NCBI GenBank assembly: GCA_030141605.1
Contig: JAQGDQ010001955.1
Location: 1-19,349, forward strand
Origin: Tubiluchus corallicola
Lineage: Eukaryota; Animalia; Priapulida
Direction: 5' to 3'
Length of the DNA: 19,349 nt
The position numbers were made by a program, and so were the translations under genes. The notes under the pieces are model-generated. The model worked only from the letters and a program-made list of their open reading frames with translations, made no database searches and was not told the DNA's origin. Positions within the stretch are counted from its first letter, which is position 1; every line of letters begins with the position of its first letter. Below are positions 1 to 19,349 of the stretch, piece after piece.

Positions 1-153
1 GAAAAGACAGAACCAGTGTTTGTCACTGCATTTGATCACACCCATTACACAGAAGGAGAAGGACTGATATTGAATTTGAACGTGGAGCTTGGTCCTGGTA
101 ACTTCACTCTCGTATTTTACGACTTGGGACTGAACGACAATCAGCGAAATTTG
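1..153 (+). CDS. Partial exon (runs in from the window edge) of a DUF1647-like protein; inverted duplicate of the exon at 382-795
   Basis: Frame 1 reads EKTEPVFVTAFDHTHYTEGEGLILNLNVELGPGNFTLVFYDLGLNDNQRNL, then a GTAAGT splice donor at 154-159. It differs from the reverse complement of 374-534 at only 2 positions. Confidence 0.6.
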
Positions 154-534
154 GTAAGTTTCTTGCATGACTTGGATATTTATTGTAATTAAAAAGCTTG
201 TAGTGACAATTTCCACGGCAGTAACACTTCATCTAAAAAGAAAAAGAAAAATGTCATAAGCAGTAACATGGTATAACGGGCTAATGATTAACTGAATTTT
301 GTGTAGGTTAATAGATTAAATGATAATTATCACGTCTAACGTAGTACTTAAACAATATCTTGTTCAATTTTTTAAACTTACCAAATTTCGCTGATTGTCG
401 TTCAGTCCCAAGTCGTAAAATACGAGAGTGAAGTTACCAGGACCAAGCTCCACGTTCAAATTCAATATCAGTCCTTCTCCTTCTGTGTAATGGGTGTGAT
501 CAAATGCAGTGACGAACACTGGTTCTGTCCTTTC
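1..534. repeat. Long inverted repeat: 1-161 vs 374-534, 212-bp spacer
   Basis: Direct comparison gives 159/161 identity, including the splice donor. The left arm probably continues beyond the window. Confidence 0.9.
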
Positions 535-795
535 ATTGACTTTAGAAGCATTGAAGGGGTTCAGATGATACTCATGAACATTCTCACAGCAGTAGCTTCC
601 CCCAGAATGTAATTTTACATTTGCGATAGTTTCTACAGATGTCTTCAAGTCTCTGTGAACAATCTGATGGTGCATCGCAGACGGTACTATTGGCCTCCAT
701 CGTCCTGGTCCTAGGAAAGTCAGTATCATCACCATACAGAGTATAAGTAAATAGGAGAGTTTCCTTTTAACTCCAAAGACGTTTGAGAGTGACAT
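382..795 (-). CDS. First coding exon of a DUF1647-like type II membrane (putative glycosyltransferase-fold) protein
   Basis: ATG at 795, a basic stretch plus hydrophobic anchor (KRKLSYLLILCMVMILTFL), then PVFVTAFDxxHY...FYDLGL, a motif pair I associate with DUF1647 (PF07801). Acceptor TTCTTGTTTCAG precedes 818 and a phase-0 GTAAGT donor starts at 381, so the ORF-track tail 364-381 is intronic. Confidence 0.65.
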
Positions 796-1489
796 AATGG
801 TACTAGACGGTGCGGATGCTGAAACAAGAACTGAAGAAATGTATAATGCGAAAAATGCTCTTTTACCAAGTTTTGTGTTATTTTGTATCTCTTTGAGTTT
901 TAATAAAAGCGTATAGAGTTCTTATTAATAAGCTTATTAGTGTCTGATGCATGTGTTTTCGCCTGCCTGCGTTTGTTGTTTGCAGGTTGTCTGCTTTGTT
1001 TGAAGCAAGCGCTTGCCTGGATATCACAGGGGATGTCCATTTCACAAAGTTAAACTTTTGCTAAATTTTATCATCAATGACCAATGGTAGAAGTGCTATT
1101 CGGAACGTACAAGGAGGGCATTTTCTAAATAAGTGTCGTTAGCCACACGTGTGAGATTATTTTGGATTTAAGTTCTATTTGCAGTAAACCTATTGCTTTT
1201 TTATCACAATAAAACTGATCTCTAATGCGTTATTGGAATTTGTACATGAGCTTTCTTCTGTGTATAATTAACACAAATTATTGTCTCTAAAATTAACAAT
1301 AAGCTAACAATTTATCATTTACTTCCCAGTAAACATTGAAATTATGAGCCTGTTCTGGCATTATTACGCCACATTCTGGCATTGCTGGCATAAAAGCACA
1401 CGCTCATTGGGTCAGTGATGGCATGCCGCTTCCTAACCATTAAATAAATAACATTGCTGGTCCAGTACTGACATGTTGCTTCAGCGATC

Positions 1490-2910
1490 TGATTTGATTT
1501 AATTCTTTATTTCAAACATAAGTTCATATTATAATTTACTCGTATACAACAAACAACATCATAAAAACAACAAAACCAATATAAACAAATCACACACAAA
1601 CTTAGATAAACCTGAAAATTACAATAACAGTCTTCACCATTACTGTCTTACATGCGATGTAAATTCAGCATCACTTCCTAAAATTTTCTGACACAATAAA
1701 TTATCACTAGTATCAAATCTTTTCACTAAACTTAAGACAGATTTTCTACGTAATACATCAAAATACATCACGCGAATTTCAAATAATCATCAAATAACCA
1801 TATCCAAAATATAATCTTTTTAACACATTGTGCGCAATTTTGAGCTTTAAGATATTACAATTATGAAAATGTCTCTAGGTAGACATGCTGTAGAGTGTAT
1901 TACGGTAAGCATTAAATAGATATCTTTTAATCAACAGAACAATAGCTAAATTTCCTAATAAGTTGTTTTGTACGACAGTAGTATAAGGATCTTTAATTAA
2001 CAATGTCAAGGTCATCTCAGTTAACATGTGAAATAATATTTTTCATCATCACAGGTACGTGAAACATTGTTATCTAGTTTGATGTTACCAAACGTAAAAT
2101 TTCTCATGATGTTTGAATTAACAGGCATAAGTTTAGTTTTAGCTACATTGATTTTTATGTCATAATGTTCACCACACAATTTATAGACATCTAGTAGTTG
2201 CTGTAGGGAGGTAATCGTTGTTGCTAACAAACAAACATCGTCAGTGTACATCAGGTAGTTCATAACCATGTTCGAGACATTGCAAGTTGGGTGGATGAAA
2301 GCTTAACACTTAGATCTTTAAAATAAAAATAAAAAAGAAAAGGTGACATCTTGCCACCTTGTCGTACTCCATTTTCAATATTAATACTTGTAGACTGACT
2401 ATGTCCCCACCTGACAGACGTGCCTTGTTGCGTGTAACAAAATGTGAGCAAGCGGTTTACAATATTCGGGTTTGAAGTCTTTGTGAGTTTGACAAAAAGC
2501 TTGAAGAAATTAACCCTATCAAATGCCTTTGACGTATCGATCAAACCAATGTGAACAGAGCTACCACTACTAATGTAGTAGCCAATGATCTCCTTTAATG
2601 TGTTTATGCAAATTTCAGGAGTTGTTGGAACATACTGTTTGCATCTGTTAAGTAATAAAATTTCGAATATTTTGCTGGCAATAGAAGCTAGTGCAATATA
2701 GTTATTGTGGCCTATAGTTATTTGTATCCGTAATAATTTTATTTTTATCTTTGACTGAAGGAATTAATATACACATCATCGGCGATTCAGGAAAAAAGCC
2801 GTGAATCAAACAGGAGCTAAATAACAAGGATAAAAGTACCGATAACATTGAGCTAGAATACTTAAAATGTTCGGCCTGCATACCATCAGGACCTGCAGAT
2901 TTATGCAAAG
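1490..2910 (-). mobile_element. Decayed, 5'-truncated non-LTR retrotransposon (LINE, CR1/L2/Daphne-group-like) RT
   Basis: RT motifs in order across three frameshifted ORFs: KSAGPDG, NYRP, IDTSKAFDRVN, GVRQGGKMSPFLF, YTDDVCLLA, NVAKTK. The 3' end has AATAAA (1506-1511, - strand) followed by a short AATCA repeat tail. Confidence 0.85.
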
Positions 2911-3493
2911 TCAGTGTTCTTCAGCAGTTTTTAAGTTACTGCTGAAAGATTTTGCTCATTAAAAATTTAAACACTGGAACAGTATCAGTTTATCATCTAC
3001 TAAAAACAGCCAACGTGCTTAAAGCAGGGCAGCAAAACAATAAAGAAGCCAACTACTAGTTCACAAGTGTTTGTCACAGAAAATGAAGTATAGATGAAAT
3101 TTGTTGAACAGAAAAATGCGACTTGATCTTGCACCACTAAAGAGGCATTGAACGACAGCCGTACTGAGCCGTTTGATGCTAAAGAACTAATTTCAAAAAT
3201 TTTTAATGCCGGAAGATCAAATATCACTTAAAGTAGTGAGAAACTGTATCTAGTTATTGGAGGAGGACACATAGACAACTTGCTGTAAATTTTAACAATA
3301 GTTGCAAACAAAATTTTTAGGCTTAGTAACTTAAAGCTGCCTGTATTTTTGGGAAAATTTAAAAAGAACAACGTAGAATTTTGTTATTTATACAAAATTG
3401 TGTGCAACATTTTGTCTACATTTTTGTCTACAACAGTTTGACAATTTTCAAGACACAACAATAAACCCCCCCTCGCACATTTTTTGCACCACC

Positions 3494-3534
3494 TGATATA
3501 ACAATTAATGTTATATCACATTAATTGTTATATC
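3494..3534. repeat. Nested perfect inverted repeats (17-bp arms with 6-nt loop; 10-bp arms with 5-nt loop)
   Basis: GATATAACAATTAATGT (3495-3511) pairs with ACATTAATTGTTATATC (3518-3534). TGATATAACA (3494-3503) pairs with TGTTATATCA (3509-3518). Confidence 0.85.
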
Positions 3535-3989
3535 CAGACACATTGACAACATTGAAATTAGGTGTGGTGAACTCACCCTGATATCCCACCGATCCTTGAC
3601 TTGACAACAAGCTTGAGGTCATTTTTTCTGACTCAATCAAGCCAGCTCAATCAGCAAATGAGGCGCAATATTTTAAAGGAAACCTGTGAATTTGTAATAC
3701 TATTAAATAAACGGCATTAGAAATTCACTGTTGAAAGAAAGAAATTACATACATTTTCTTACACAGTTTTTGTTAGCAAAACGATTTTAATGGCTTGACT
3801 GAAATCACATAACTGCACTAGCTTCAATCATTAAAAAATCTGTCTACAATAAACATGTCATGATGCATCGCACCAGCAAATCATTTGGTGTCCTGACGCT
3901 TATTAAGCGAGATGTTGATCTTACAAGATTTTAATAAAAAAAACAAGTAACTGCTTAGGTATGGCAACTGGTCTCATATGTTGTCAATA

Positions 3990-4237
3990 AATTTTTGGCA
4001 CATTCATCTAAAACCGTGCAATGAACCCGATCCTAAAAGCTGACGTCTCACAAACGAAAATACCTCAGGAAAATTCGTGTAATTCTTCCACCATAGAAGC
4101 GGATCTGTTTTTAAAATCTTTTTGAGGTTTCTTGATCTTAGTATAATTCCGTGATTTCTACCTAAAGAAAAAACAATATCCTTGTTGAAGAGTCCCAGGC
4201 TGAATGACAACTTGATTAGTGCGAATCTTTCTGCTAT
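3990..4237 (-). pseudogene. Remnant N-terminus of a eukaryotic integrase-core (IS3EU-like) DDE transposase
   Basis: LIKLSFSLGLFNKDIV..HGIILRSRNLKKILK....WKNY...EVFSFVRRQLLGSGSLHGFR*MCQK resembles the recalled family pattern YF.LG..Y.EI...HGI..S.R.LKR.L...L.GSG.L.GYRWM.QK. The Trp codon appears to have become TGA, and no catalytic core follows. Confidence 0.55.
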
Positions 4238-4851
4238 AACACCGTTTCTGTAATTACGTAATTCTATAATGATGTAATTCTATGCACACGAAATAATTCG
4301 TGGCCACAAATTCGATTTCTCACGCACGGATCATAATACATTGTCACGAATTAATAACTTTTCTCATCTTGAACCTTCGAGGGTTCCAGAGTTTGATGCA
4401 TACCATCTCACACAAAATTTGCAGTTATACGCAACTTTTGCATAAAGCAAAGATTCTATTGGTCTTATCTGTTTTTATAGTCAACAATTATTTTTGAGCT
4501 TTTTATAGCCAACAATATACACGAGAACGAATTTAAGCACGTTTAATTAAAATATGTAAGTCATAAGGCTGGTAAAACAGCTTATAAGGGTATGTATCGA
4601 ACCCGAAGCCAAGCAAAAGTTGTGTCAGACAAATTGTTGCAGAGAGAGTCAATTATGCGGAGTTATTTGAGTCAATTACCGATAGGTTTTATGTATATTT
4701 GAATATAAGCAGCTCGTTCCAGGCGTTTATGTGTGTGAATTATGCGATTAAGTCTGTTAACGGTGAGTGTATTATGCGGCGCCTAATGTAGTATGGCAGA
4801 AGCTTATAATAGTAATTTTGTGTTTACGTTGTATATGTGATGCAATAGATT

Positions 4852-5879
4852 TTCGTACTCTCATTGACATCAAAACTACTTCGTACTCTCATTGACTTGA
4901 AATCTACTTCGTACTCTCATTGACATCAAAACTACTTCGTACTCTCATTGACATGAAATCTACTTCGTACTCTCATTGACATCAAATATACTTTGTACTC
5001 TCATTGACATCAAATCCACTTCGTACTCACATTGACATCAAATCTAGTTCGTACTCTCATTGACATCAAATCTACTTTGTATTCTCATTGACATCAAATC
5101 TACTTTGTATTCTCATTGACATCAAATCTACTTTGTATTCTCATTGACATCAAATCTAGTTCGTACTCTCATTGACATCAAAACTACTTCATACTCTCAT
5201 TGACATCAAATCTACTTCGTTCTCTCATTGACATCAAATCTACTTCATACTCTCATTGACATCAAATCTACTTTGTATTCTCATTGACATCAAATCTACT
5301 TTGTATTCTCATTGACATCAAATCTACTTCGTTCTCTCATTGACATCAGAACTACTTCCTACTCTCATTGACATCAAAACTACTTCATACTCTCGTTGAC
5401 ATCAAATCTAGTTCGTACTCTTATTGACATCAAATCTACTTCGTTCTCTCATTGACATCAAATCTACTTCGTACTGTCATTGACATCAAAACTACTTCGT
5501 ATTCTCATTTACACCAAAACTACTTCGTATTCTCATTGACATCAAATCTACTTCGAACTCTCGTTGACATTAAATATACTTCGTACTCTCATTGACATCA
5601 AAACTACTTCGTAGTCTCATTGACATCAAAACTAGTTCGTACTCTCATTGACATAAAATCTACTTCTTACTCTCATTGACATAAAATCTACTTCGTTCTC
5701 TCATTGACATCAAAACTAGTTCGTAATCTCATTGACATCAAAACTAGTTCGTACTCTCATTGACATCAAAACTACTTTGTACTCTCATTGACATCAAAAC
5801 TAGTTCGTAATCTCATTGACATCAAAACTAGTTCGTAATCTCATTGACATCAAAACTAGTTCGTACTCTCATTGACATC
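4852..5879. repeat. 28-bp minisatellite, ~36.7 copies, consensus TTCGTACTCTCATTGACATCAAA(A/T)CTAC
   Basis: Units are head-to-tail with no spacers. Unit starts fall at 4852+28n (checked at 5132 and 5860), so there is no net indel. Confidence 0.95.
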
Positions 5880-6133
5880 TGTTGGGAGCTAGTAGTTTTT
5901 ATGGTGGGGGTGCAACTCTTTACCTCTCAACTCATCCACAAATCTGACTATCCTGTCGCGTCATCTTTTATTCACAATAAAAGGGGTTTGTGGGTGGTTG
6001 TTGTCCTACAATTTTCCAGAGGGCAACAAGGCATATGAACCAAAACGACACAGGTTTTCCATGTTGACCATGACATACATAGATTCCAAACATTCCGACA
6101 ATAAAATCTTATATGAAACGGAGGAAAAGATTA

Positions 6134-6275
6134 TGAATTTGAATTTGAATTTATTTATTCCACAGCAACTCAAATATACATATAAATTGATATAACATTG
6201 AAAAAAAATAAATAAACTATGCGAGTTACTGTGAGGAGGAGGAAGGAGCATTTTGCTTTCGAGTCCTCCTCCAAG
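6134..6275 (-). mobile_element. Short 3' end of an L2/Crack-like LINE (or related SINE)
   Basis: The - strand ends AATAAATAAATTCAAATTCAAATTCA (poly(A) signal plus short tandem tail). It is preceded by a stem-loop, read on + as GGAGGAGGAAGGAGC-ATTTT-GCTTTCGAGTCCTCCTCC, resembling L2-group 3' UTR hairpins. Confidence 0.4.
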
Positions 6276-7961
6276 GTTATGTTTACTATTTTTATTCACT
6301 TTTTGCTCTGTTTAGATAAATCAGGACAGGTTATATTATCAATGACAGTTTCGCGTAAAGGCAGTTAATAATAATAATAACAATGACAAAGTGAAAAGGA
6401 AACAAATTGTCTACTTGTCAGTTAACCCTTCCACTGAGAGGACAAGGACATAGGATAGGAGTCCGCGGACATAGCTCACTCCAGTCGGTCACAGCAACAC
6501 ATCAACGACTTCAAGTCTATGGCCATGACTATCAAAGGTGATGACGCCTGCAGCAAATTAAACATGAACTAAGGAATGCCTCACAAGTCTCTGTGGTTGA
6601 CTCAGGATACGTCCACAATCCACTACGCCAACTTGCCTTGATATAGCATATAGTGACTTGATTGGACATTTGGCAATGAATAATCAACAGCCAGTTAGAT
6701 TTTGTCGGATTCTTATGCCTTCGCTTTCAGCTGTATGATCTCGAATGAAAGCTTTCAATTTTATTAAGACATTTATTTAAGAGACATTCTTTTATTGAAA
6801 TTTATTGGAATTTATTTATTTATTACTAGTTGCTTTTCTTATGTCGACTATTTCTTGTATAAATGCATGTACTGCATATTCTCTATCACACAGATTTGTA
6901 CTATGCACTATACTCTACCCAGAAATCTGTTTGTTTGAAGTAAACAGTTTATATTAATATCTTTGGAAATATGGTAGTCATGCTGGCAGACACAGCCAAG
7001 AACGAGAAAAACTGTGCAATTAGGTGAATTTTAAAGAAAGTTTCACCATTGATATTTGCTGTTTCAAAGTACTCCCAGGCAGCAAATTGCATCTGATCAA
7101 GCACCATTAATGTAGTTTCTCTGTTCACCAAATGACTTGTAAATGCTACTTATTCTTAGTAAACCATTCCCATCATATTGAAAAATATTTCTGGGAATAG
7201 GAAGTCTGAAGATTGTACAATTTGCCATTGTTATCAAACCAGAACTCCTAGACTAAAAAAGAAACTACATTTTGTTAGGGATAATAAATGCACAGAAAAA
7301 TTATGATAACCCTGAAACACAAATAAACTTTGTTTCAACCACTATGGGCTCAGTTCACATAGCTACATTTTTCATTGCCATACGCCCTTGATGGCCAATC
7401 CTGAACATTTGAACAACCGTTCATTTTTTCAAGTTATTCGTCAACTGATATTTGTGTAATATAAAAACTGTTACTATTATGCTGATTAAAACGTAATAAA
7501 CAGTTTCATTTGAATGCACCTAATACATTTGTTGGATGAGTTGACTTAAGATGCTGTGCCTCTAGCAAGCTAATATATTCTGCCTTATAATCTCTCATTC
7601 ATGACTTACCTTAATGCCATCACAACAATACATTAATCATCACTACAACTATTTAAGAGCCGTCTCATCTGCAGGGACTAACTGTTTGGGATTTAACTGT
7701 TTGACGCTGTTTTTATTTGTTATCATAAATTTCTATTCTTTATTTGTTCTTTTTTAAGGTTTGCTAATGTTATTTACATTGCATTCTATTCGCACTACAG
7801 TACAGAATTCCCTCATGATATAGATATTTTAAACATTACTCCGGGTATTAGTATAAAAGGTCTGAATAAGCTGAAATTCAGTCCTTTTATGTATAATTAG
7901 AAACTTTTAACAGTAGTGTGTAATGTTACATTACTGGCCGTTTTAGGGACCCCTGCCCTGT

Positions 7962-8136
7962 GGGGGGGGGGGGGGGTGTTGACGAAACCGTAAAAAAGTG
8001 CGCGAAAGCCTGTGAAAGTGTGTGAAACCATGTGAAAGTGTGTAAAACTGCTTACATGACCTCAATCAAAGAAAAAGCGTGTGAAACAGAGAAAAAGCGT
8101 GTGAAACAGAGAAAAAGCATGTGAAACAAAGAAAAA
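7962..8136 (+). repeat. G15 run followed by GTGAAA-rich short repeats, including 3 copies of a 20-bp unit (GAAAAAGCGTGTGAAACAGA)
   Basis: G run at 7962-7976, degenerate ~10-bp TGTGAAA repeats at ~7990-8050, and 20-mer copies starting at 8071, 8091 and 8111. Confidence 0.75.
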
Positions 8137-8332
8137 TGTGGCAAGTTGAGTCCCCTCCCGCATGCCTTCATTTGGGCAAATGACCTTGAACTTTTCCCCA
8201 CCCGAAATGGCTTCTTTTTGGAATTACCTTATTAGAATTAGTAACAACAATACTTTTTAAAACACTTTGTCTAATAAACATAAGTAACAAAAATAAGCAA
8301 CAACAATACAATATTTTATGACATATAGTAGC

Positions 8333-8835
8333 TGTATTGTTTAGGAAACAATTTGATAATATATTTTTTGTTATACAGTTGTGTCATAATGAATGTTTTT
8401 TTTAGACTTGGAATTAACAGAAACTTGTAGTATCTTGGGGAGGTGTTGCCATCTTTTGGCTGTAAAATTAATTTACCTGTCTCTTAAACTGTTTACTGTA
8501 CAATCTATTTACATACCATTTACTGGGTTTCAACTAAAGTCAATGAGCTGTAACAGGAGTCCTGGCTATTGTATGTTGGTCAGTAGTAGTTCAGGTCTCA
8601 TAGTCTGCTGGTGAATAGTGTAATTGGTGAATTTCATAATGTAGTTTGTCAATGTATGTTGCTTTAAATTATATTTTTGTGGTTTTTCCTGATTTGCTAA
8701 ACTGAGAAGTTCAATGCTTTAATTTTTGTTATAGAGTGTTAAACTTAGGTGAATTATTAAGTGTAAACTTCCCTAAACGTTGCTTCATTACTTTTATTTG
8801 GTTACAACATGCAGGCAGACAAACTGGACAAAACA
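8333..8835 (+). repeat. 5' LTR of BEL element 1
   Basis: 8333-8652 matches 14789-15108 (5 transitions in 320 bp), and 8792-8837 matches 15208-15253 exactly. The termini form an imperfect 8-bp inverted repeat. Confidence 0.9.
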
Positions 8836-8870
8836 TTTCAACATAAATTCAGCACTTTCAATAGGAATTA

Positions 8871-11800
8871 ATGATGTCAGCTTCGGAGAAAAAGACGAGG
8901 AGAACTGTTGCAAAGTCAGCTTTGACAAGGGTACTGAGAAGGCTTCAAAATTTAATTGAAGAGGAAGACAGTGTGCAAGAAATTAATCGGCTGGTGGATG
9001 CTGTGGAGGCTGCACTCAATCATTTGGAAGCATGCCACATTGAATTCTTTAATGCATGCAAACAAGAACAGCAGAATGTGGATGAAGACAAGGCTTCTCA
9101 ATACATGGAGCAAGAATATTCAAGAGCAGACAACGTTTTTGCATCAGTTAAGGACTACAAGCGGAGAATCAGGCGAGTTGAAGAACTCAAGAAAGAGAAG
9201 GATGATGAAGCTAAAGCAACGAAGGAAGAGGAAAAAATCATCAGGTGGCACAAAATAGATTTTGATACACTGATTCATTTATTGCATGGACATATTGAAA
9301 ATCAGGAAAAGAGGCTTGAGAGCGGAGATACAGCAATTCAGGTTCTGGAGAGTTGTCGGTTAGAAATTCAGACATTGTTGGAAAAAGTGAGGTTATCATT
9401 CACCAAATATGCTTCCTTGCTTGCTGACTATCAGGAAGAGGATAGAAGATTCAATGACGTAGAGACAATTGTTAAAGAGATAAATGACAAAGCAATGAAC
9501 TATATTGGTTCTCAATCATTGCAAAACAATCATGCATCTGGCATGTCAAACAACACTGGAAATGAGCAAGCATCTGGTAGAGCAAAATTGGAAGCAATAC
9601 CAATTCCCGGTTTTCGTGGTGGCTACAGTGAATGGCCGACGTTCATCACAAATTGGAGGAGGATTGTCGAAAAACATTATTCCAGTGAATTTTGAGCTGC
9701 CATCTTGAATGAGAAACTAAGTGGAGAGGCGGCGGATCTAGTAGCTGCCTGTAATGACAACTACGCTGAAATGATTAAACGCCTTGAAAGAAAATATGGA
9801 GATAGAAAGAAAGACACTGAAAGCATCATGGCAGAAATCAGAGATGTCAAGCCTTTATCTTCTGGCAACCATGTTGGTTTCATAAAGTTTGTCGACAGGA
9901 TAGAAAAAGCCAGTACAAAACTAAAGTCACTAGGTATGTTGCAGGAAATTAGCAATGTGGGGGCACTAGCTGAAATTGAACGCAGGTTACCGGAAGATAT
10001 TCGTAATGAATGGGCAAGGCACATCATCAGCAAGAGTGATGAGGAGAGACTGGAACCTTTCAAGCTTCTTTTACCATTTTTGTTAATGGAAAAGGAGCGC
10101 GTAGAGTATTTAACTGCAGGTGTACGAAAGCAGTTTGGCAGTGTCAGTAGCCATTATCAGGACATTCAACCCGAAGCCTTTGGGACTGGTGGCGGTGCTA
10201 AGTTAAAAAGCTGTTTCAAATGTGGCAAACAAGGACATTTTGCTCGTGAATGTAAAGCAAACGGGAGGATGGGTGACAAAAGACCTTACTTCAAGTGCAG
10301 CACATGCGAAGTAAATGACCATTTAAACAGGGATTGTGAGAAGTTCAAAAATATGACTGTTAATCAAAGACGAGATGTAATAAAGAGGCATGGTGCTTGT
10401 TATATCTGCTTTGGAAATCATGTGGCAGTAGTATGCAAGGGCACAGCAAAGTGCAAGAAGTGTCAGAATGGAGGTCACCATACAATGCTCTGCTCCAAAG
10501 AGATGCAATCTGGGCCTGGTAGTGTTTCAAAATCAAATGTTGAAGTGGTTGATTCAACAACTATTTCAAATTGTGTGGATGCTAAGAAGGTTACATCAGC
10601 TACAGTGACGGATAGTGCTGGTACTGATTCAACAACATTACTTCATATAATGGAGATTCAAGGACCAAGACGGGGCAGTAAAATCAATGCTTTCTTTGAT
10701 TCAGGAAGTTCTGGAATGTTTATAACACATGACTGTGCAAAGCAGAATAAGTTCCCTGGAAAAAGTGAGATAATTGATGTTAAAACTTTGCAGGGACATG
10801 TCGAAACTTTGGAAACTCAGGTGTATAACGTCACGATAGTGGATAAAGATAATCAACGTCATACCTTTTTGGCATACGGCCTGGATTCAATAACTGGAAG
10901 CATTTCTCCAGTTGACATGACAGTGGTGAAGCGTATTTTTCCAGGGATTTCAGTTGGGGACCTTAAGCGTCCGAGTGGCACAGTGGAGCTTTTACTTGGC
11001 AATTTTAAAGCTGGATGGCAACCTCAACCAATCAGATCAGATGGCGCTCATCTTTTCATTATGGAAAATATGTTTGGTAGGTGTTTGGGTGGATCTCATC
11101 CAGAGCTATTTGACACTACCAGAAAGGCAAATGGATGCTGGAAAGAAGCTATTTTTCATGCAAAGGTCTCTAATTTCAGTACTGAAGTTTTAAGTCATCC
11201 ACAGCTCAATCCACAGGAGTGCCTAGTGATAAAGCAGTCGGGTGATTCTATGTCATCATTTTCAGTTGGTACAGAAGATAACTGTGACACCTTCTTTGCA
11301 GCTGAAGCACTCGGAACTCAGATTGTGCCGAAATGTGGGGCATGTCGGTGTGGTAAGTGCCCTATACCCGGGCATACCTACAGTTTCCGGGAAGAAAGTG
11401 AGCTACGCTTGATCCGTGAAGGACTCAGCTACGATCTAGATCGCCAAGTCTGGATTTCAAAGTATCCTTGGATAGTGGACAGATCACAGTTGCCTGATAA
11501 CTATCAACAAGCTCTGTCAGCTTTACAGTCGTGTGAGACAAGTTTGGCAATAAATACAGAATGGGGTGCTGTGTATTCAGGTCAGATACAAGACATGGTC
11601 GATCGAGGTGCTGCACGCAAACTTAGTCAAGCCGAGATTGATAACTGGAAAGGGCCAGTTTTCTATTTATGCCACTTGGCTGCGCTTAACCCTAAGAGCC
11701 AGTCAACACCCGTGCGAATTGTTTTCAACAGCAGTAGAAAAGCCAAGGGTAACATTTCACTTAATTCATGTTTGGCTAAAGGACCAGACAATTACCTTAA

Positions 11801-14756
11801 TAATTTGCTTGGCGTGTTTTGCAGGTTTCGAGAGCACTCTTTTGCTATTCAAGGGGACATTCGGAAGATGTACAACTCAGTTGAAATGGATGTCAATGAT
11901 CAGCACTGTCACAGATTTCTTTGGCGGGATTGTGATGAAAATAGGGCACCAGATGTATACATCATTACTGTTGTAAATATTGGCGACCGTCCGGCGGGAG
12001 CGATTGCCACTGAAGCATTGTATATGACTGCTGAAATGTTCCAAAGCTCACATCCTCAGGCAGCAAAGGTCATAAAAGAGTCAACATATGTTGATGATAT
12101 TCTAGAGTCTTGTGAAGGAAGAGAAAGGGGCCTCGGACTAGCAAAGGAGGTGGAAGATATTTTGAAAAGAGGGAATTTTAAAGTGAAGTGTTGGCGTTTT
12201 TCTCGTGAAGCAACTACAGAAGAAAATTCTCCGGTTAAAGTGATTGCAAATTCAGAAGAGGAAGGTCGAGTGTTGGGAGTTGTGTGGGACTCAGTGGTGG
12301 ACAAATTCAAATTTCATGCAAAGATCAATTTCTCAAGACGGAGGAGGAAAGTACGAACAGGTACAGACATATGTCGCGAGGAGTTAGCCAGAGAAATGCC
12401 ACCAATTTTGACAAGACGGATGGTCATGAGCCAAGTCATGTCACTGTTTGACCCATGTGGCTTTCTTACTCCAGTCACCATGAAGAGTAAGATACTGCTA
12501 AGGGAAACTTGGGTTAAGAAACTTGGCTGGGATGATGCATTGCCATTGGATCTGCGGGAGAAGTTTTTTGAATTTTTTCAAGAACTCTATGATGTTCAGA
12601 GTTTATCATTCCCAAGATGCTTGCAGCCAAGAGAAACTGTTGGTGATCCGATGCTGATCATACTTTCAGATGCTAGTGAGACAGGATTTGGTGCTGTCGC
12701 CTATGCTCATTGGGAATTAACTGATGGAGGTAGTAAGAGTCAGCTTATAATGGCAAAGGGTAAAATTGCTCCGCTGAAGCACATCACGATTCCAAGACTT
12801 GAACTAAATGGTGCGCTAGTGGGCAAACGAATAAGGAAATTCATTGAAAGTGAAATGCGGTACAATTTCACAGAGGTTTTGCATCTCATTGACTCGAAAA
12901 CAGTTTTGGGGATGCTACAAAAAACAAGCAGTAGATTCGATCGCTATGTGGGAGTGCGTGTTGGAGAAATACAATCTGCATCTAAACTTTCAGAAGACGG
13001 GAAACTTGATGAGTGGATGTGGATCGATGGATCTCATAATATTGCAGACTGGGTGACACGTGGAAAGAAGCCATCAGATTTAGCAAGTGATGAATGGGTA
13101 AATGGACCACATTTTCTGAGTTTACCAAGGAGTGAATGGCCTGTATCACCTGCTTCAGTCAGTGAGGATGAACTATCAGATATCGCAGCAGTTGGACTAG
13201 TTTCTGTCAAGGAGAACGAGTCAGTATTTGATGTATCTCGGTTTAGCAAAGTTAATAGGCTACTTCGTTCAGTCGCAAGAGTGTTGCAAATAGTGAAACC
13301 GTGTGGTGATGGGAAACGCCATTTTTCCAGTGGTTCAGTAATGGTAACAGCTGAGATGTTGGAGGCAGCCAGGAGACGTGTCATCAAAGAAGCTCAGGAC
13401 ACAGTTGAGGAAGAGTTAGAGAAATCGGCACCAGATAAAGATGGTAAACCCACTGGTAGATTTACAAGGTTAGCACCAACGAAGAACAGTGACGGATTTT
13501 GGGTGGTTGGCAGTAGAATGCAGTGTTATGTCATTTTCACGTGGGACAACCAGCTACCTATTATTTTGCCATATGGACATCCATTGACACGACTTTTCAT
13601 GGACGAAGCTCATTCTCAAGGGCATCTTGGGGTGGCTGCAACTCTGGAAAAGTTTCGCAGGAAGTACTGGGTTCCTCGTGGAACGCAATTGGCCAAAAGT
13701 GTCAAGCACAGATGTACTACTTGTAGACGTGTTGATGTCAGAGCAGCGAAACAGCTAATGGGCCCTCTTCCAGAAGAAAAGCTTAAGCCAGCTCCACCTT
13801 GGACAAATACAGGAGTTGATTTGTTTGGCCCATTTAGGGTAAGAGGAGAGGTCAATAAGAGATCAGCTGGGAAAGCATATGGAGTTCTGTTCGTGTGTTT
13901 AATAACAAAGGCTGTCCACATAGAACTTGCGAACAGTTACTCCACTGGCAGCTTTCTTTCATGTCTCCGTCGGTTTGGTGCAATCAGAGGCTGGCCAACA
14001 AAGATGTTCAGTGATGGTGGGTCGCAGCTGAGAGCAGCAGGCAAAGAATTGTTGGAAATGCATCTTCAGCTAGCAGGAAAAGATGTGTCCACATTCAGTG
14101 CTTCAAATGGATTTGCTTGGGAGTTTAGCCCTGCACATGCTCCATGGTGGCAGGGGACAACAGAGAAGTTGATTCATACGGCAAAAAGGGCGATTTCACT
14201 GGCAGTAGGATGTGCACTCATGAGCTATTCCGAGTTACAAACTGTCCTTTACGAGGTGATGCAGCTAATAAACCAGCGACCTCTTCATGTACATATTTCA
14301 GAGGAGAAGCATTTCAAGGCTTTGACACCGAATGATATGTTGCTTGGTCGCAGCTCTGTGAACATACCTCCAGGTCCGTGGAACTACAAGGCATCGTACA
14401 GAGATCGCTTTAGAGTAATTCAGGCAATTGTCGACACGTTTTGGCGCAGGTGGAGCAGAGACTGTGCACCAGCCATGGTAGTTCGTCAGAAGTGGCATCA
14501 TAGAGAGCGGAACATTCAAGTAGGAGATGTTGTGTTTGTTGCTGACACCAATACTCTGCGAGGAGAGTATCGCTTGGCAATGGTGGATGAGGTGTTTCCT
14601 GGATCAGATGGAAATGTTCGTCATTGCATCGTCAAATACAAAAACATCAAACCAGATGAGGATGCTAGGAACTATGGTGGTGCGACATATACAAGGGTAA
14701 GACGGCCAGTTCAGCGGTTGGTTGTTCTTGTTCCTGCAGATGGTTGGGAGATTTAA
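8871..14756 (+). CDS. gag-pol: BEL/Pao Gag-Pol polyprotein, one frame interrupted by an in-frame TGA at 9693-9695
   Basis: ORFs 8871-9695 and 9705-14756 are in the same frame (SEF*AAILNEKL). Motifs: DUF1759 (IPGFRGGYSEWPTF); Zn knuckles at 10212-10493; protease FDSGS (10698); RT GDIRKMY and YVDD (12087-12098); RNase H SDAS, IPRLEL and NIADWVTRG; integrase HxxGH..CxxC, GVDLFGP, SDGG and PWWQGTTE; C-terminal FWRRW..RPVQRL. Confidence 0.93.
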
Positions 14757-14783
14757 AGGAGCACCGCGTTTTTTTTTCATCTT

Positions 14784-14788
14784 GGGGG
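14784..14788 (+). promoter_or_regulatory. Short polypurine tract (GGGGG) of element 1
   Basis: Lies immediately 5' of the TG that starts the 3' LTR at 14789, preceded by a T-run, as is typical for BEL elements. Confidence 0.7.
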
Positions 14789-15251
14789 TGTATTGTTTAG
14801 GAAACAATTTGATAATATATTTTTTGTTATACAGTTGTGTCATAATGAATGCTTTTTTTAGACTTGGAATTAACAGAAACTTGTAGTATCTTGGGGAGGT
14901 GCTGCCATCCTTTGGCTGTAAAATTAATTTACCTGTCTCTTAAACTGTTTACTGTACAATCTATTTACATACCATTTACTGGGTTTCAACTAAAGTTAAT
15001 GAGCTGTAACAGGAGTCCTGGCTATTGTATGTTGGTCAGTAGTAGTTCAGGTCTCATAGTCTGCTGGTGAATAGTGTAATTGGTGAGTTTCATAATGTAG
15101 TTTGTCAAGACTGCAATTTATGTTGAAACCTACCCCCCTCTACACCAGCTTCACTGCTTCATTTTTTTTACAATAAAGGAATCAACCTGTATCAAAGTGT
15201 TCATCATTTTTATTTGGTTACAACATGCAGGCAGACAAACTGGACAAAACA
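14789..15251 (+). repeat. 3' LTR of BEL element 1
   Basis: Matches the 5' LTR except for 15109-15207. Contains AATAAA at 15172-15177 and ends ACAAAACA. Confidence 0.9.
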
Positions 15252-15799
15252 TTCATAGCTATAGTGTATCGGTTGTGCAATTCTGGGTTCCTCTGCAGCC
15301 GTTTACGTAGACTTTCCAATCTAGATGAAGCCATTTGTAGCGTATCTGGTAAAACATCGTTCTCAGATTTAAATGGGATGTCCAACTGGTAATGCCCATG
15401 TGTTTTTGTGACTGAAGCCTCCCATATATCGAGAGCACGCATATCGTCTCTAGAGAATTGTCTGTCAGACTCGCTAGTTTCAATTTTCCAGAATTGTTCT
15501 ATTTGCTGCTGCAAGGAATTGGTTTCTCCATATGACAATGCATTGGCTTGGGTTAAATTACTACAAATGCGCCCTAAATTAGGAACGCCGCCTCCTATGG
15601 GTCCATTAAGGGTCCAGCCTAGCTTTGTCTTCACAGCATATGGCGTTAGTCTAGGACCTGTTCGTACCTCAAGAGGAATCAGCGCATCAGGAACATCCTG
15701 GCCGATCAAAAGTCCCAGTTCAGTTAGGTCTTCTGTATCTGTGAACGATAGGGGAAGTCCTTGCAAATGCGGCCATTGTTCTACATCCTTGCTAAAGGC
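15252..15799 (-). pseudogene. In-frame continuation of element 2 pol (end of protease and pre-RT linker) after a TAG, truncated
   Basis: The same frame continues past the TAG at 15800-15802 as AFSKDVEQWPHLQGLP... to ...NPELHNRYTIAMN, then runs into the reversed LTR of element 1. Confidence 0.85.
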
Positions 15800-18790
15800 C
15801 TAGCAGTCCTTTTCCAGTAACAATGCAGGCCTAACGAAGACATGAGGCAAAGCTATTTTATTGCCAGTGTTTACCCCAGTAACAGACATCTTCGTGATTA
15901 AAGTGTTTATCTTGGAATATTTCTCTTCTATAGTGGTTAAAGAGAGCGTTCGTTTTTGTCCAGTAGCCCCAAGTTTGTCGAACAATGCCTTTGTACAAAA
16001 AGTGTTAGTCGAGCCAGGGTCAAGTAGGGCTAAAGTACGCACGGGCATCTTCCCATCAACTTCAACCAAAACTGAGACAACAGGGAGAGCCGCTTTGCCG
16101 CCTTCCTTAATACTAGCACAACTGCTAGAAGCTTCTGGTTTACAATGTGTTGGCGCTTTTTCCTTCTTGCTTCCATCATTGTTTTTAGAAGGTGACATTT
16201 TCTCCAAGGCAGCATGCAGTAAATTTGAATGCTTACGTCTGCATCCTTCTACGTCGCATCCTGCTTTGAAGCATCGAGCAGCCCTGTGCTTTCCTTTAAT
16301 CAAACAATTGAAGCAAAGACCTTCTCTTCTGGCGGTTTTCAATCTATCAGTATCATTCATTGACTTAAATTTATTGCATAGCCTGAGTGAACGGTGTTCC
16401 GTAGAGTTACATAGAAAACAAGGCATCTCTAGGCGTTGAGAAGCCATTTTGCCACCACTTCCGGTTGTATTTCCGGGTTGTCGTTCACTGTTGCATTTCG
16501 TAATTGATGCAGTTTCCTGCGCTGAGCTGGCGAAATTCCTGGCTTTGGTGTCGCGTCTACCTTTTGGGCTCCTAGTAGACAGGCTAACGTTAATGTCGCC
16601 AAAGACCGGATGATTAATTTTGTCAGCTGCGTCCTTAATGAATTCGACTACATCAAATATCGTCGGATTCCTGTGCTCATATTTCAGAAGCCTGGCTACA
16701 ACATCCTTCCACCTATCCTGGAACTTGAATGGGAGTTTTTTAATTATTTGTAGCAAACTGCATTGAGTACTAATTTCGCAAACGTTGTTCATTATTTTCA
16801 AAGTTTCCACACAAGCCACAATCAAATCAGAAAATTCCTGTAACTTTCCCGGCTCATTTATCTTTATGGGCTCAAATTCAGCAATTCTGGAAAGCCAGGC
16901 CTGTGTGACAACAAATGGCGAGCCGAATCTTTCGGTTAAAAGCTGTTTAGCATGCCCATATGCAAAACGGGGGTCCATATAATTACAACTGTCAACAACT
17001 CTTTTAGCTTTACCAATGCAGAGTTGGGCTAACCTAGTGTACCTCGCTGCATCATCTTGGGTATAGTTCTCCACGCTGGCTTCGAAACGCTTGATAAAGC
17101 TCCAGAACTTCATTACGTCACCATCAAACGTTTCAAGCTGCACGTGTGGAAGCTGCATAGCATTGTACATATTTAAGTGTTGTCTTTGGCCTTCTAACAT
17201 GAGGTCCATAAAAACGTTCATGTCATTCTGACTAGCCCTACCGGAGAAATTCCTAGAATTATTTTGTATCCCGTTACCACAAGAAGCCTGAGGCGATGTA
17301 GCCGGAAGCGGAAGTTGCGTATTCCCTGGGACGAAGTCACGTGCAGAAATATTTAAAGTTTGTTCTACCTGGGGTGATTTAAATGCGGCATGGAAGAACG
17401 GCGTAGTTTGTTTAACGCTAGGTTCTAAACCTTCACTGGAAGAATTTTCGAAGAAGGGCTGTACATCAGATAAATAGATATTCCACCATCTACGAAGAAA
17501 ACCTGATTCATAGTCATCCGAAAAATTGACGTTTACATATTCAGTATAATCCCAGGGCTTCTTTCGGCCTAAAAAGTGCGCAACTTTAATCTTGCTACTG
17601 AACTGCTTCATTGCAGGAAGGTAACCGTAACGACCTTGGACGGCAGCATTATACACAAAAGGTAGGCGCTTGTCAAACTGTGAACTCCAGTTCGGAAAGG
17701 CTAAATTTAATAAACCCTGATCACCGCCATCGAATGAACAGGCCTCAGTTTGTGATAGTGACAACAATCTACTGTAAGTTTCCAAATTAGGCTGAAATAC
17801 AAACATTCCAGAATTAAAACAATCAGGCCACCCCACATCTGGGGCAGCCGCAAGCTCATCATAATTGAATAACTCATCAATATTATCTAATACTAAAGTA
17901 TCAGCATCTAAGTAAACGCACTTTGTAAACTGAGTCATAGCCCAGCAGTGCAATTTCGAGAATGTTACATTTAGCTCTGGCCTACCTAGCAAATGCAAGT
18001 TATCAAAATCACTACTCTTTAATAAATCAATCATTTGTACATAATCAAAAACATTACTAAGCTCTGCCATAACTCTGCTAGAAACAGTATGGGTGACCAA
18101 AATTGCTAGATGTCGAGTTGTACCAGTTCGACGCAAACTGTGTGCCAAGACAAGAGCTCCCTTAGCATAACTGTCGTTCATTGCCATGGTGAGATAGGCC
18201 TCCATAGACGTATGATGAACTGCAGGCTTGGTGTCTGATGACTGGGCTTTGGTGACGTCACGCACTCCTTGAAGCCAATCGGTAACCTTGTCCTTGGTTG
18301 ACATGGGTTTCCTAGCTAAAGTCTCGTCCTTGATTTCAGGCGAGGTGATGGTTGTACGCGACTTCTGACTGGTTGCACTGCTATGTGAAGTAACTTCACT
18401 CTCAAGTCTTAACTGTTTTAACTTCATTGCTTTTAATTTCAGCTCCTGTTCCTGAATCTTAATCTCATGCAACTTTACTTCCCTGGCACTTTTCTTCGAC
18501 CGTCTCGTAGATTTCAAATGACTAGCACCTGAAGATGCTTTGGAAGGGCTGCGCTCGCCAACTTGATGCTGCGCTGTCGCTGTAGCTGCGTCAGCATACG
18601 ACGACGTACCAGACGCTTCACATGACGTTACATTATATGAATGATCTGGTTTCTGCTGACTTGCTAAGAGTCTGTGAATTAGCTCTTCTTTACTACCAGA
18701 AACTGACAGTTGTTTGGCCCGCAGCATTTCTCGCAGCTGATCACGGGTAGTATTTTTTAATTTCTCCCTTGTTGTTTGGTCCGACATCAT
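15800..18790 (-). CDS. gag: BEL Gag-protease ORF: SAP domain, glycogenin GT8 domain, PAM2-like motif, DUF1759, Zn knuckles, aspartic protease
   Basis: A 996-aa uninterrupted ORF. SAP-like aa 11-45; glycogenin aa 196-445; LNISARDFVP aa 479-488; capsid-like region from ~17152; knuckles CFLC..H..C, CFNC..H..C and CDVEGC..H..LLH; protease DPG. Confidence 0.92.
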   Translation of the reverse strand: MMSDQTTREKLKNTTRDQLREMLRAKQLSVSGSKEELIHRLLASQQKPDHSYNVTSCEASGTSSYADAATATAQHQVGERSPSKASSGASHLKSTRRSKKSAREVKLHEIKIQEQELKLKAMKLKQLRLESEVTSHSSATSQKSRTTITSPEIKDETLARKPMSTKDKVTDWLQGVRDVTKAQSSDTKPAVHHTSMEAYLTMAMNDSYAKGALVLAHSLRRTGTTRHLAILVTHTVSSRVMAELSNVFDYVQMIDLLKSSDFDNLHLLGRPELNVTFSKLHCWAMTQFTKCVYLDADTLVLDNIDELFNYDELAAAPDVGWPDCFNSGMFVFQPNLETYSRLLSLSQTEACSFDGGDQGLLNLAFPNWSSQFDKRLPFVYNAAVQGRYGYLPAMKQFSSKIKVAHFLGRKKPWDYTEYVNVNFSDDYESGFLRRWWNIYLSDVQPFFENSSSEGLEPSVKQTTPFFHAAFKSPQVEQTLNISARDFVPGNTQLPLPATSPQASCGNGIQNNSRNFSGRASQNDMNVFMDLMLEGQRQHLNMYNAMQLPHVQLETFDGDVMKFWSFIKRFEASVENYTQDDAARYTRLAQLCIGKAKRVVDSCNYMDPRFAYGHAKQLLTERFGSPFVVTQAWLSRIAEFEPIKINEPGKLQEFSDLIVACVETLKIMNNVCEISTQCSLLQIIKKLPFKFQDRWKDVVARLLKYEHRNPTIFDVVEFIKDAADKINHPVFGDINVSLSTRSPKGRRDTKARNFASSAQETASITKCNSERQPGNTTGSGGKMASQRLEMPCFLCNSTEHRSLRLCNKFKSMNDTDRLKTARREGLCFNCLIKGKHRAARCFKAGCDVEGCRRKHSNLLHAALEKMSPSKNNDGSKKEKAPTHCKPEASSSCASIKEGGKAALPVVSVLVEVDGKMPVRTLALLDPGSTNTFCTKALFDKLGATGQKRTLSLTTIEEKYSKINTLITKMSVTGVNTGNKIALPHVFVRPALLLEKDC
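17456..18205 (-). CDS. GYG: Glycogenin (GT8) catalytic domain embedded in frame within Gag
   Basis: Colinear with glycogenin-1 as recalled: NDSYAKGALVL, RPELNVTFSKLHCW, CVYLDADTLVLDNIDELF, AAPDVGWPDCFNSG, SFDGGDQGLLN, LPFVYN, YGYLPA, VAHFLGRKKPW, WWNIY. Confidence 0.95.
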
Positions 18791-18908
18791 TTAGGTGTGT
18801 TCAACTTTAAACATGACCAAATAACTTCTCCTGTCTACAAAAGTCAATCTATGTACGCGAAACAGTAGCTAAACCGGAAGTAGGTCACAATCTGGGTCAT
18901 ATGTTGAC

Positions 18909-19349
18909 TGTATAAAAATGTCCACTCTGGATTGTCGAATGCCGATATAAAATTGCTTGGGCTTTACGGAGACAAACAAACAAAGTCATCATTCGCTCAG
19001 TGTAACTGTTTATTGTTTGTACTATTTTCATGGCACATGCCCCGTAGTCATATTTGCTTCATCCCAAAATATTACATTTTATCTGAAATAATATATAAAT
19101 TTCTTTAATAAACTGATTCATTTTTACCAAAACATCGAATATGATTAAATTAATGAGAAGCTTACAACAAAATAAAATAAATGACTAAATAAAATTTACG
19201 TACATCGTTGGCATTAATCATGAGTTCACACAGCTACGTCACCACATGTACACCTTGAAACCTAAATGACCGGAAACTCTGTAGGAAGCGACTATTGAGG
19301 CCAGGTGTCGCCACTTGTAACTTATAGCTATACTAAATTTGACAAACAA
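18909..19349 (-). repeat. Putative 5' LTR of element 2
   Basis: Upstream of the Gag ATG. It has AATAAA (19009-19014, - strand), an AT-rich intron-like GT..TTTCAG segment and a candidate CA end (TTTTATACA at 18909). There is no second copy in the window to confirm the boundaries. Confidence 0.35.

Follow-up and report, generated by a model that had tools for sequence, protein, structure and literature searches.

A predicted glycogenin catalytic domain within the Gag of a BEL/Pao retrotransposon of Tubiluchus corallicola

A 19,349-nucleotide stretch of DNA from the priapulid Tubiluchus corallicola (NCBI GenBank assembly GCA_030141605.1, contig JAQGDQ010001955.1, positions 1 to 19,349; hereafter the window) was analyzed. 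Its minus strand carries a 996-residue gag-protease open reading frame (ORF) at 15800..18790 with a glycogenin domain in frame, assigned from the ORF list, Pfam and matches to BEL/Pao Gag-Pro proteins. The element concerned, termed element B, is predicted to be a BEL/Pao long terminal repeat (LTR) retrotransposon with a glycogenin domain of family GT8 inside its Gag. Capture of host domains by transposons is known; a glycogenin inside a BEL/Pao Gag was not met in the proteins and papers searched and appears to be new. The differences between copies of the element indicate that the domain has quite probably been under selection within it.

The domain order in the ORF is SAP, Ser-rich/coiled coil, GT8, linker, DUF1759, zinc knuckles and protease; all coordinates given for element B are on the minus strand. 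The SAP domain (residues 15-42, 18665..18748) matched PF02037 with an E value of 6.3e-5, slightly below the curated cut-off. It is followed by a Ser-rich stretch with a likely coiled coil (approximately residues 97-132, 18395..18502) of weak similarity to the N termini of P0362 and P0357; such an N terminus is typical for the Gag group of element B. The captured GT8 catalytic domain (approximately residues 196-447, 17450..18205) was located by Pfam, alignment to human glycogenin-1 (GYG1) and structure match. Beyond it lie a low-complexity Gag linker (17156..17449), unmatched among glycogenin-like proteins, the DUF1759 capsid-like Gag domain (residues 555-696, 16703..17128; PF03564, E 5.1e-6), a Cys/His zinc-knuckle region read from the sequence (16211..16420) and an aspartic protease core (15920..16066; PF13650, E 0.008) with DPGS at 16010-16021. 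DUF1759 Gag, zinc knuckles and aspartic protease lie in a single frame, as expected of a BEL/Pao element.

The nearest relatives of element B were BEL/Pao (Belpaoviridae) proteins of marine invertebrates, P0261 (Lineus), P0283 (Patiria), P0362 (Lytechinus), P0350 and P0380. Their Gag, zinc knuckles and protease are 32-38% identical to the non-GT8 half of the ORF (residues 487-996), and they share with it a single gag-pol frame. The non-GT8 parts gave 0 matches at E <= 1 among 369 glycogenin-like proteins. P0350 has a SAP (E 9e-9) at the location equivalent to that in element B, together with a coiled-coil N terminus, and has the identical SAP-linker-DUF1759 order without GT8; the GT8 domain therefore occupies a variable linker. 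Element B differs from these relatives by a 250-residue glycogenin domain in this linker; PF01501 was found in 0/9 relatives scanned, and among the matches listed no protein aligned to both halves of the ORF. Nearest Gag relatives with a full pol carry Peptidase_A17 and DUF5641. The copy of element B in the window has a premature stop at 15800..15802 (ORF list) and a pol remnant in the same frame at 15252..15799, placed from the ORF list and motif positions, which ends at the 3' LTR of a second element (element A, below). Pol stops at 15252 and the 3' end of element B is absent from the window. The high-copy repeat 5' of the ORF (18900..19349), over which depth was several-fold higher in three sequencing runs, is likely the 5' LTR, with ends that are not fixed.

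A preliminary description of this DNA had reported catalytic and acceptor motifs of glycogenin together with their human equivalents. The motifs are real, and all lie in the single frame 15800-18790: FSKLHCW (17942-17962), DAD (17900..17908), FNSG (17807-17818), FDGGDQG (17714-17734), the acceptor tyrosine, Tyr388 (17627..17629), and HFLGRKKPW (17552-17578). The range first assigned to them, 17560..17970, holds the motifs, except that HFLGRKKPW begins 8 nt outside it. Alignment to human GYG1 (chain 7q0b_E, 350 residues, own numbering; E 1.3e-84) confirmed the equivalences, with K279, D295, D297, N326, D354, D357, Q358, Y388, H405 and K411 corresponding to Lys86, Asp102, Asp104, Asn133, Asp160, Asp163, Gln164, Tyr195, His212 and Lys218, respectively. 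D295/D297 of DAD thus form the DxD metal site. The ten key-residue columns are invariant in 51/51 aligned glycogenins. The window copy keeps 10/10 of these residues and also columns 205, 208, 270, 276, 390 and 408. Lys86, Asp160/163, Gln164, His212 and Lys218 we take to be active-site residues. Tyr195 is the acceptor of a primer of 8-12 residues, and the C-terminal segment of glycogenin binds glycogen synthase, in the available passages of PMC9188544; the available passages of PMC7046021 also describe the role of Tyr195 and report Asp102His and Thr83Met variants as inactive. The residue terms did not occur in the PMC12267440 text.

The domain belongs to the GT8 sequence family and has the GT-A fold, with glycogenin as its nearest relative. 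It matched PF01501 with an E value of 4.5e-18 and is ∼52% identical to GYG1 (CAZy GT8; PDB 3t7m, 3u2w, 7q0b), with which it has the GT-A fold and the ten named residues in common. An AlphaFold model of the domain had a pLDDT of 86.4. Superposition of the prediction on GYG1, as had been proposed in the preliminary description, gave agreement of the fold (3u2w, Z 36.8, rmsd 1.8 Å over 252 residues), whereas the match to LgtC was lower (Z 21). The insert is intronless and spans approximately the glycogenin N terminus to the end of the catalytic domain. Unlike GYG1, it lies inside a retrotransposon Gag, has changes at 12/98 conserved columns, is 7 residues shorter in the loop after the KPW motif and lacks the C-terminal docking tail. 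The docking motif, GN34, corresponds to human residues 300-332 in a tail that recruits the synthase (available passages of PMC9188544); it is present in 44/51 homologues and absent from the six frames of the window (best match E 3.3). The domain thus reads as a glycogenin-derived catalytic domain that is incomplete as a glycogenin. The loop after KPW (17514-17531) is variable, with 12 nt inserted and 3 nt deleted, both in frame, in other copies.

Four public DNA runs (X1-X4), from two samples and two studies, were searched with the window. They contain 51-67% of its sampled words, equivalent to ∼1.3-2.1% divergence. The 5' junction of the GT8 domain was bridged by contigs of X1 (18036-18348) and X3 (17817-18400), and the 3' junction by contigs of X2 (16935-17539), X1 (17361-17501), X3 (17402-17755) and X4 (17388-17510), so that both junctions were bridged in two samples. 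No contig joint skipping the domain was found in X1-X4. Coexisting haplotypes were 94-99% identical, with the main copies 98-99% alike. There are multiple copies of the element, all of those seen carrying the domain. At the stop codon 15800-15802 there are contigs unlike the window in X1, X2 and X4, at the codon of residue 204 (18179..18181) there are such contigs in all four runs, and an X1 and X2 contig passes 15250 without element A, into letters absent from the window; the defects are therefore private to the copy in the window. At 16115-16477, X1 and X2 also contain, at low depth, a diverged relative of the element that has 42 differences and 25 gap letters over 340; X4 has a similar one. 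In X4 a decayed GT8 stretch (17568-18023) was present at a depth of 96-127, compared with ∼30 for the flanking gag; this dead fragment seems to have been separately amplified in that sample.

A second glycogenin was detected through a 47-nt block (17942..17988), from the contig listings of the runs. One contig each of X1, X2 and X3 matches only this block and is unlike the window on both sides; this contig was equated with the only one below 90% in each run. Both 30-nt flanks of the block read by eye as glycogenin coding sequence in the frame of the window. They differ from it at 12 and 13 of 30 letters and have 12/20 residues in common, with 8/12 of the codons for those residues differing silently. 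The second glycogenin is ∼70% identical over 107 nt, a small sample with flanks biased towards divergence, and no splice site was found in these 107 nt. The loose end past 17988 was considered as an intron acceptor, which would have indicated intron loss relative to the host gene, and was rejected because the sequence is in-frame glycogenin coding sequence. The second glycogenin has the family residue in two invariant columns that are changed in the window, and it is therefore probably the host gene; were it instead an old element copy, the case for selection inside the elements would be even stronger. Element depth was 2.8, 6.3 and 3.4 times that of the second glycogenin contig in X1, X2 and X3, values that are depth ratios and not copy numbers. 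No near-identical donor gene was found in the four DNA runs at 80% likeness.

Selection was assessed from differences between copies. The variants used were those listed (40 of 65 and 40 of 298; complete for two X4 contigs). The X4 contigs 17568-17912 and 17883-18023 were treated as one copy, 95% identical to the window. Of its 24 differences from the window 14 are synonymous, compared with 20-28% expected, giving a pN/pS of 0.18-0.28 and a binomial p of 5e-5 to 2e-3, depending on transition bias. Among the listed differences 16/32 in GT8 are synonymous (pN/pS 0.26-0.39), as are 15/27 in the rest of the ORF (GT8 vs rest, Fisher p 0.79). In simulations of neutral decay to 10% and 20% divergence, all ten key residues were kept in 10% and 0.7% of runs, and the frame was stop-free in 4.8% and 0.3%, respectively. 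The preliminary description had left the choice between purifying selection inside the element and a recent capture. The synonymous excess between copies and the lack of a near-identical donor support the former, and the latter is disfavoured by that same silent excess and by a second glycogenin that is only ∼70% identical. Near-identity to the host glycogenin with a dN/dS of ∼1, an outcome considered at that stage, was not seen, in a comparison limited to 107 nt. Selection is indicated by these codon counts for the domain as a protein and not specifically for catalysis.

We propose that the domain acts in the particle. A segment of host glycogenin mRNA was probably recombined into gag by template switching during reverse transcription; mRNA is suggested as the source because the insert is intronless and runs approximately from the glycogenin N terminus to the end of the catalytic domain. 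Insertion would have been into a linker that differs among relatives in both length and sequence. Gag assembly would then pair GT8 domains, which may dimerise, and each paired domain would glucosylate its own Tyr388, building a short alpha-1,4 chain of 8-12 residues. With the docking tail lost, glycogen synthase would not be directly recruited. The particle, decorated with malto-oligosaccharides, could pass for host glycogen or be anchored to it, and may join glycogen granules or host glycogenin. A benefit, speculatively, may come from hitch-hiking on germ-cell glycogen granules or from shielding against host surveillance. Catalytic activity of the domain in intact copies is somewhat more likely than not. 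That a self-glucosylated, glycogen-associated particle is the selected function falls a little short of an even chance. More doubtful is the fullest form of the proposal, in which element B would be the first retrotransposon to glycosylate its own Gag, a self-primed glycogen mimic riding or hijacking host granules, for example into oocytes, and tail-less so as to be free of control by the host synthase.

Several observations weigh against this proposal. The copy in the window is dead: it has the stop, its pol is truncated, and residue 204 (human residue 11), in a column invariant in 51/51 glycogenins, carries a change private to it. The window deviates at 12/98 columns conserved in >=90% of homologues, compared with 0-8 deviations for 50/51 natural glycogenins and 13 for one. 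In a tree of 94 rows built by a quick method, which does not place the domain with support, its branch has a length of 1.35 (median 0.17). Together these values point to a constraint weaker than that on host genes, or to a host that is itself fast-evolving. With random placement among conserved columns the probability that 12 changes spare the ten named residues is ∼0.25, and residue retention alone is therefore no proof of selection on catalysis. The deepest divergent X4 copy carries a 2-nt deletion and no longer has the equivalents of Lys86 and Asp163, a decay that biases pN/pS upward. Finally, Mimivirus R707 keeps the tyrosine and does not self-glucosylate (available text of PMC9614988).

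The best-surviving alternative, which we consider unlikely, is that the domain is a structural passenger, which must fold, and perhaps dimerise and aid Gag assembly, with catalysis dispensable. The pN/pS of GT8, equal to that of the rest of the ORF, the mostly conservative departures at conserved columns and the probability of ∼0.25 for chance sparing of the ten residues are all consistent with a passenger. The pocket residues of GT8 are unnecessary for folding. They have all been kept here, though only 11/68 and 16/41 variable columns match the commonest residue of the family, and no copy without the 750-nt insert was seen in X1-X4, though the relatives work without GT8; both observations argue for more than a passenger.

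Less likely still, the domain could be active as a glucosyltransferase but have a different acceptor or role, transferring glucose to Gag, host proteins or glycans in trans, or, by pairing with host glycogenin and recruiting no synthase, poisoning the initiation of host glycogen. Accelerated change around an intact active site and loss of the docking tail would fit such a role, and R707, in which DxD and Tyr are kept without self-glucosylation and mixed linkages are made, is a precedent in the passages of PMC9614988 available. However, in element B the tyrosine and its arm (Y388, Y390) are kept, down to the silent change at Y388 in the decayed X4 copy, and its identity to GYG1 is 52%, compared with 26% for R707.

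It is improbable that the domain was captured recently and retained neutrally, perhaps in a different species, with horizontal transfer afterwards and no donor in the present host. The main copies are 98-99% alike, the second glycogenin, known over 107 nt, may instead be a paralogue or belong to an old copy of the element, and no database glycogenin exceeds 58% identity (best 120 of 1895 in the 140-448 aa set), from which the donor lineage would be unsampled. Against this, the synonymous excess between copies 5% apart is independent of the donor, and the insert has changes in columns that do not vary between molluscs and vertebrates, which is unlikely for a fresh working gene copy. Least probable is a domesticated single-locus Gag-glycogenin host gene or an assembly chimera, as might be read from the rest of pol and the 3' LTR missing from the window, since contigs of two samples span both junctions, several haplotypes coexist with 94-99% identity, the element has 2.8-6.3 times the depth of the probable host gene, and there are copies uninterrupted at 15251, that of the window being the broken one.

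The other features of the window were assigned as follows. Element A, a second BEL/Pao element, is on the plus strand at 8333-15251, with LTRs at 8333-8835 and 14789-15251 and a gag-pol interrupted by one stop (9693-9695). Its flanks have no target-site duplication (GTAGC vs TTCAT), and its LTRs, with 5 differences over their first 320 nt, contain an internal block in which they do not resemble each other. On its far side there is no continuation of element B. Element A is likely a two-copy recombinant, or the result of a deletion or misjoin. At 4852-5879 a 28-nt unit is repeated in tandem, with 36.7 copies and 90% matches. Positions 1-161 and 374-534 form an inverted duplication, 99% complementary, of a portion of a minus-strand coding exon (ORF 364-921); Atlas leads for this ORF were glycosyltransferase-like and weak (<0.9). 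Frameshifted reverse-transcriptase fragments at 2021-2763 on the minus strand (PF00078, E 5.9e-12 and 1e-5) are likely from a decayed non-LTR element.

Comparable proteins were sought in sequence collections and in the literature. No GT8-Gag fusion was found in proteins of 547-1743 aa (best 120 of 708), 1744-4980 aa (11/11) or 140-448 aa (best 120 of 1895), or in a 50%-cluster library (best 150 of 13256). Viral contigs gave no match, ESM Atlas gave no usable match, and three glycogenin loci in metagenome contigs, at 52-56%, looked ordinary. P0005 and P0010 are glycogenins fused to PF25076 and LIM (PF00412) domains. The fusion is unreported in the literature searched, which comprised titles and the starts of abstracts and did not include subscription papers or Repbase; the same literature held nothing relevant on SAP in a Pao Gag.

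The targets of host domains captured by LTR elements are usually membranes, nucleic acids or chromatin. This is in part the picture from bdelloid LTR elements, which, as here, carry host-type enzymes, namely a GDSL esterase, a DEDDy exonuclease and a dUTPase (available passages of PMC5408684). The bdelloid esterase and exonuclease are encoded by separate ORF3s, whereas the sugar transferase of element B is fused within Gag, and within-genome variation of the bdelloid extra ORFs is mostly neutral in those passages, in contrast to the synonymous excess found here. Pieces of host proteins within transposable element (TE) proteins have likewise been described (Abrusan et al., 2013; PMC3597677, as far as available); in element B a whole enzyme domain is kept. 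In the parts available of that study selection was detected in 9/24 testable TE incorporations, and BEL1-I_SM is among the incorporations. Its main text and four supplement files, file 1 not being among them, contained no glycogenin or PF01501. Mimivirus R707 is, like the domain described here, a glycogenin-like GT8 protein on a selfish element with DxD and Tyr kept, but it is a stand-alone gene of a giant DNA virus and 26% identical to glycogenin (available passages of PMC9614988).

A natural tail-less glycogenin would provide a tool to ask what role the enzyme has besides priming, a question left open in the available passages of PMC7046021. Were a carbohydrate-priming enzyme kept in Gag by selection, the biology of retrotransposon particles would be tied to glycogen metabolism.

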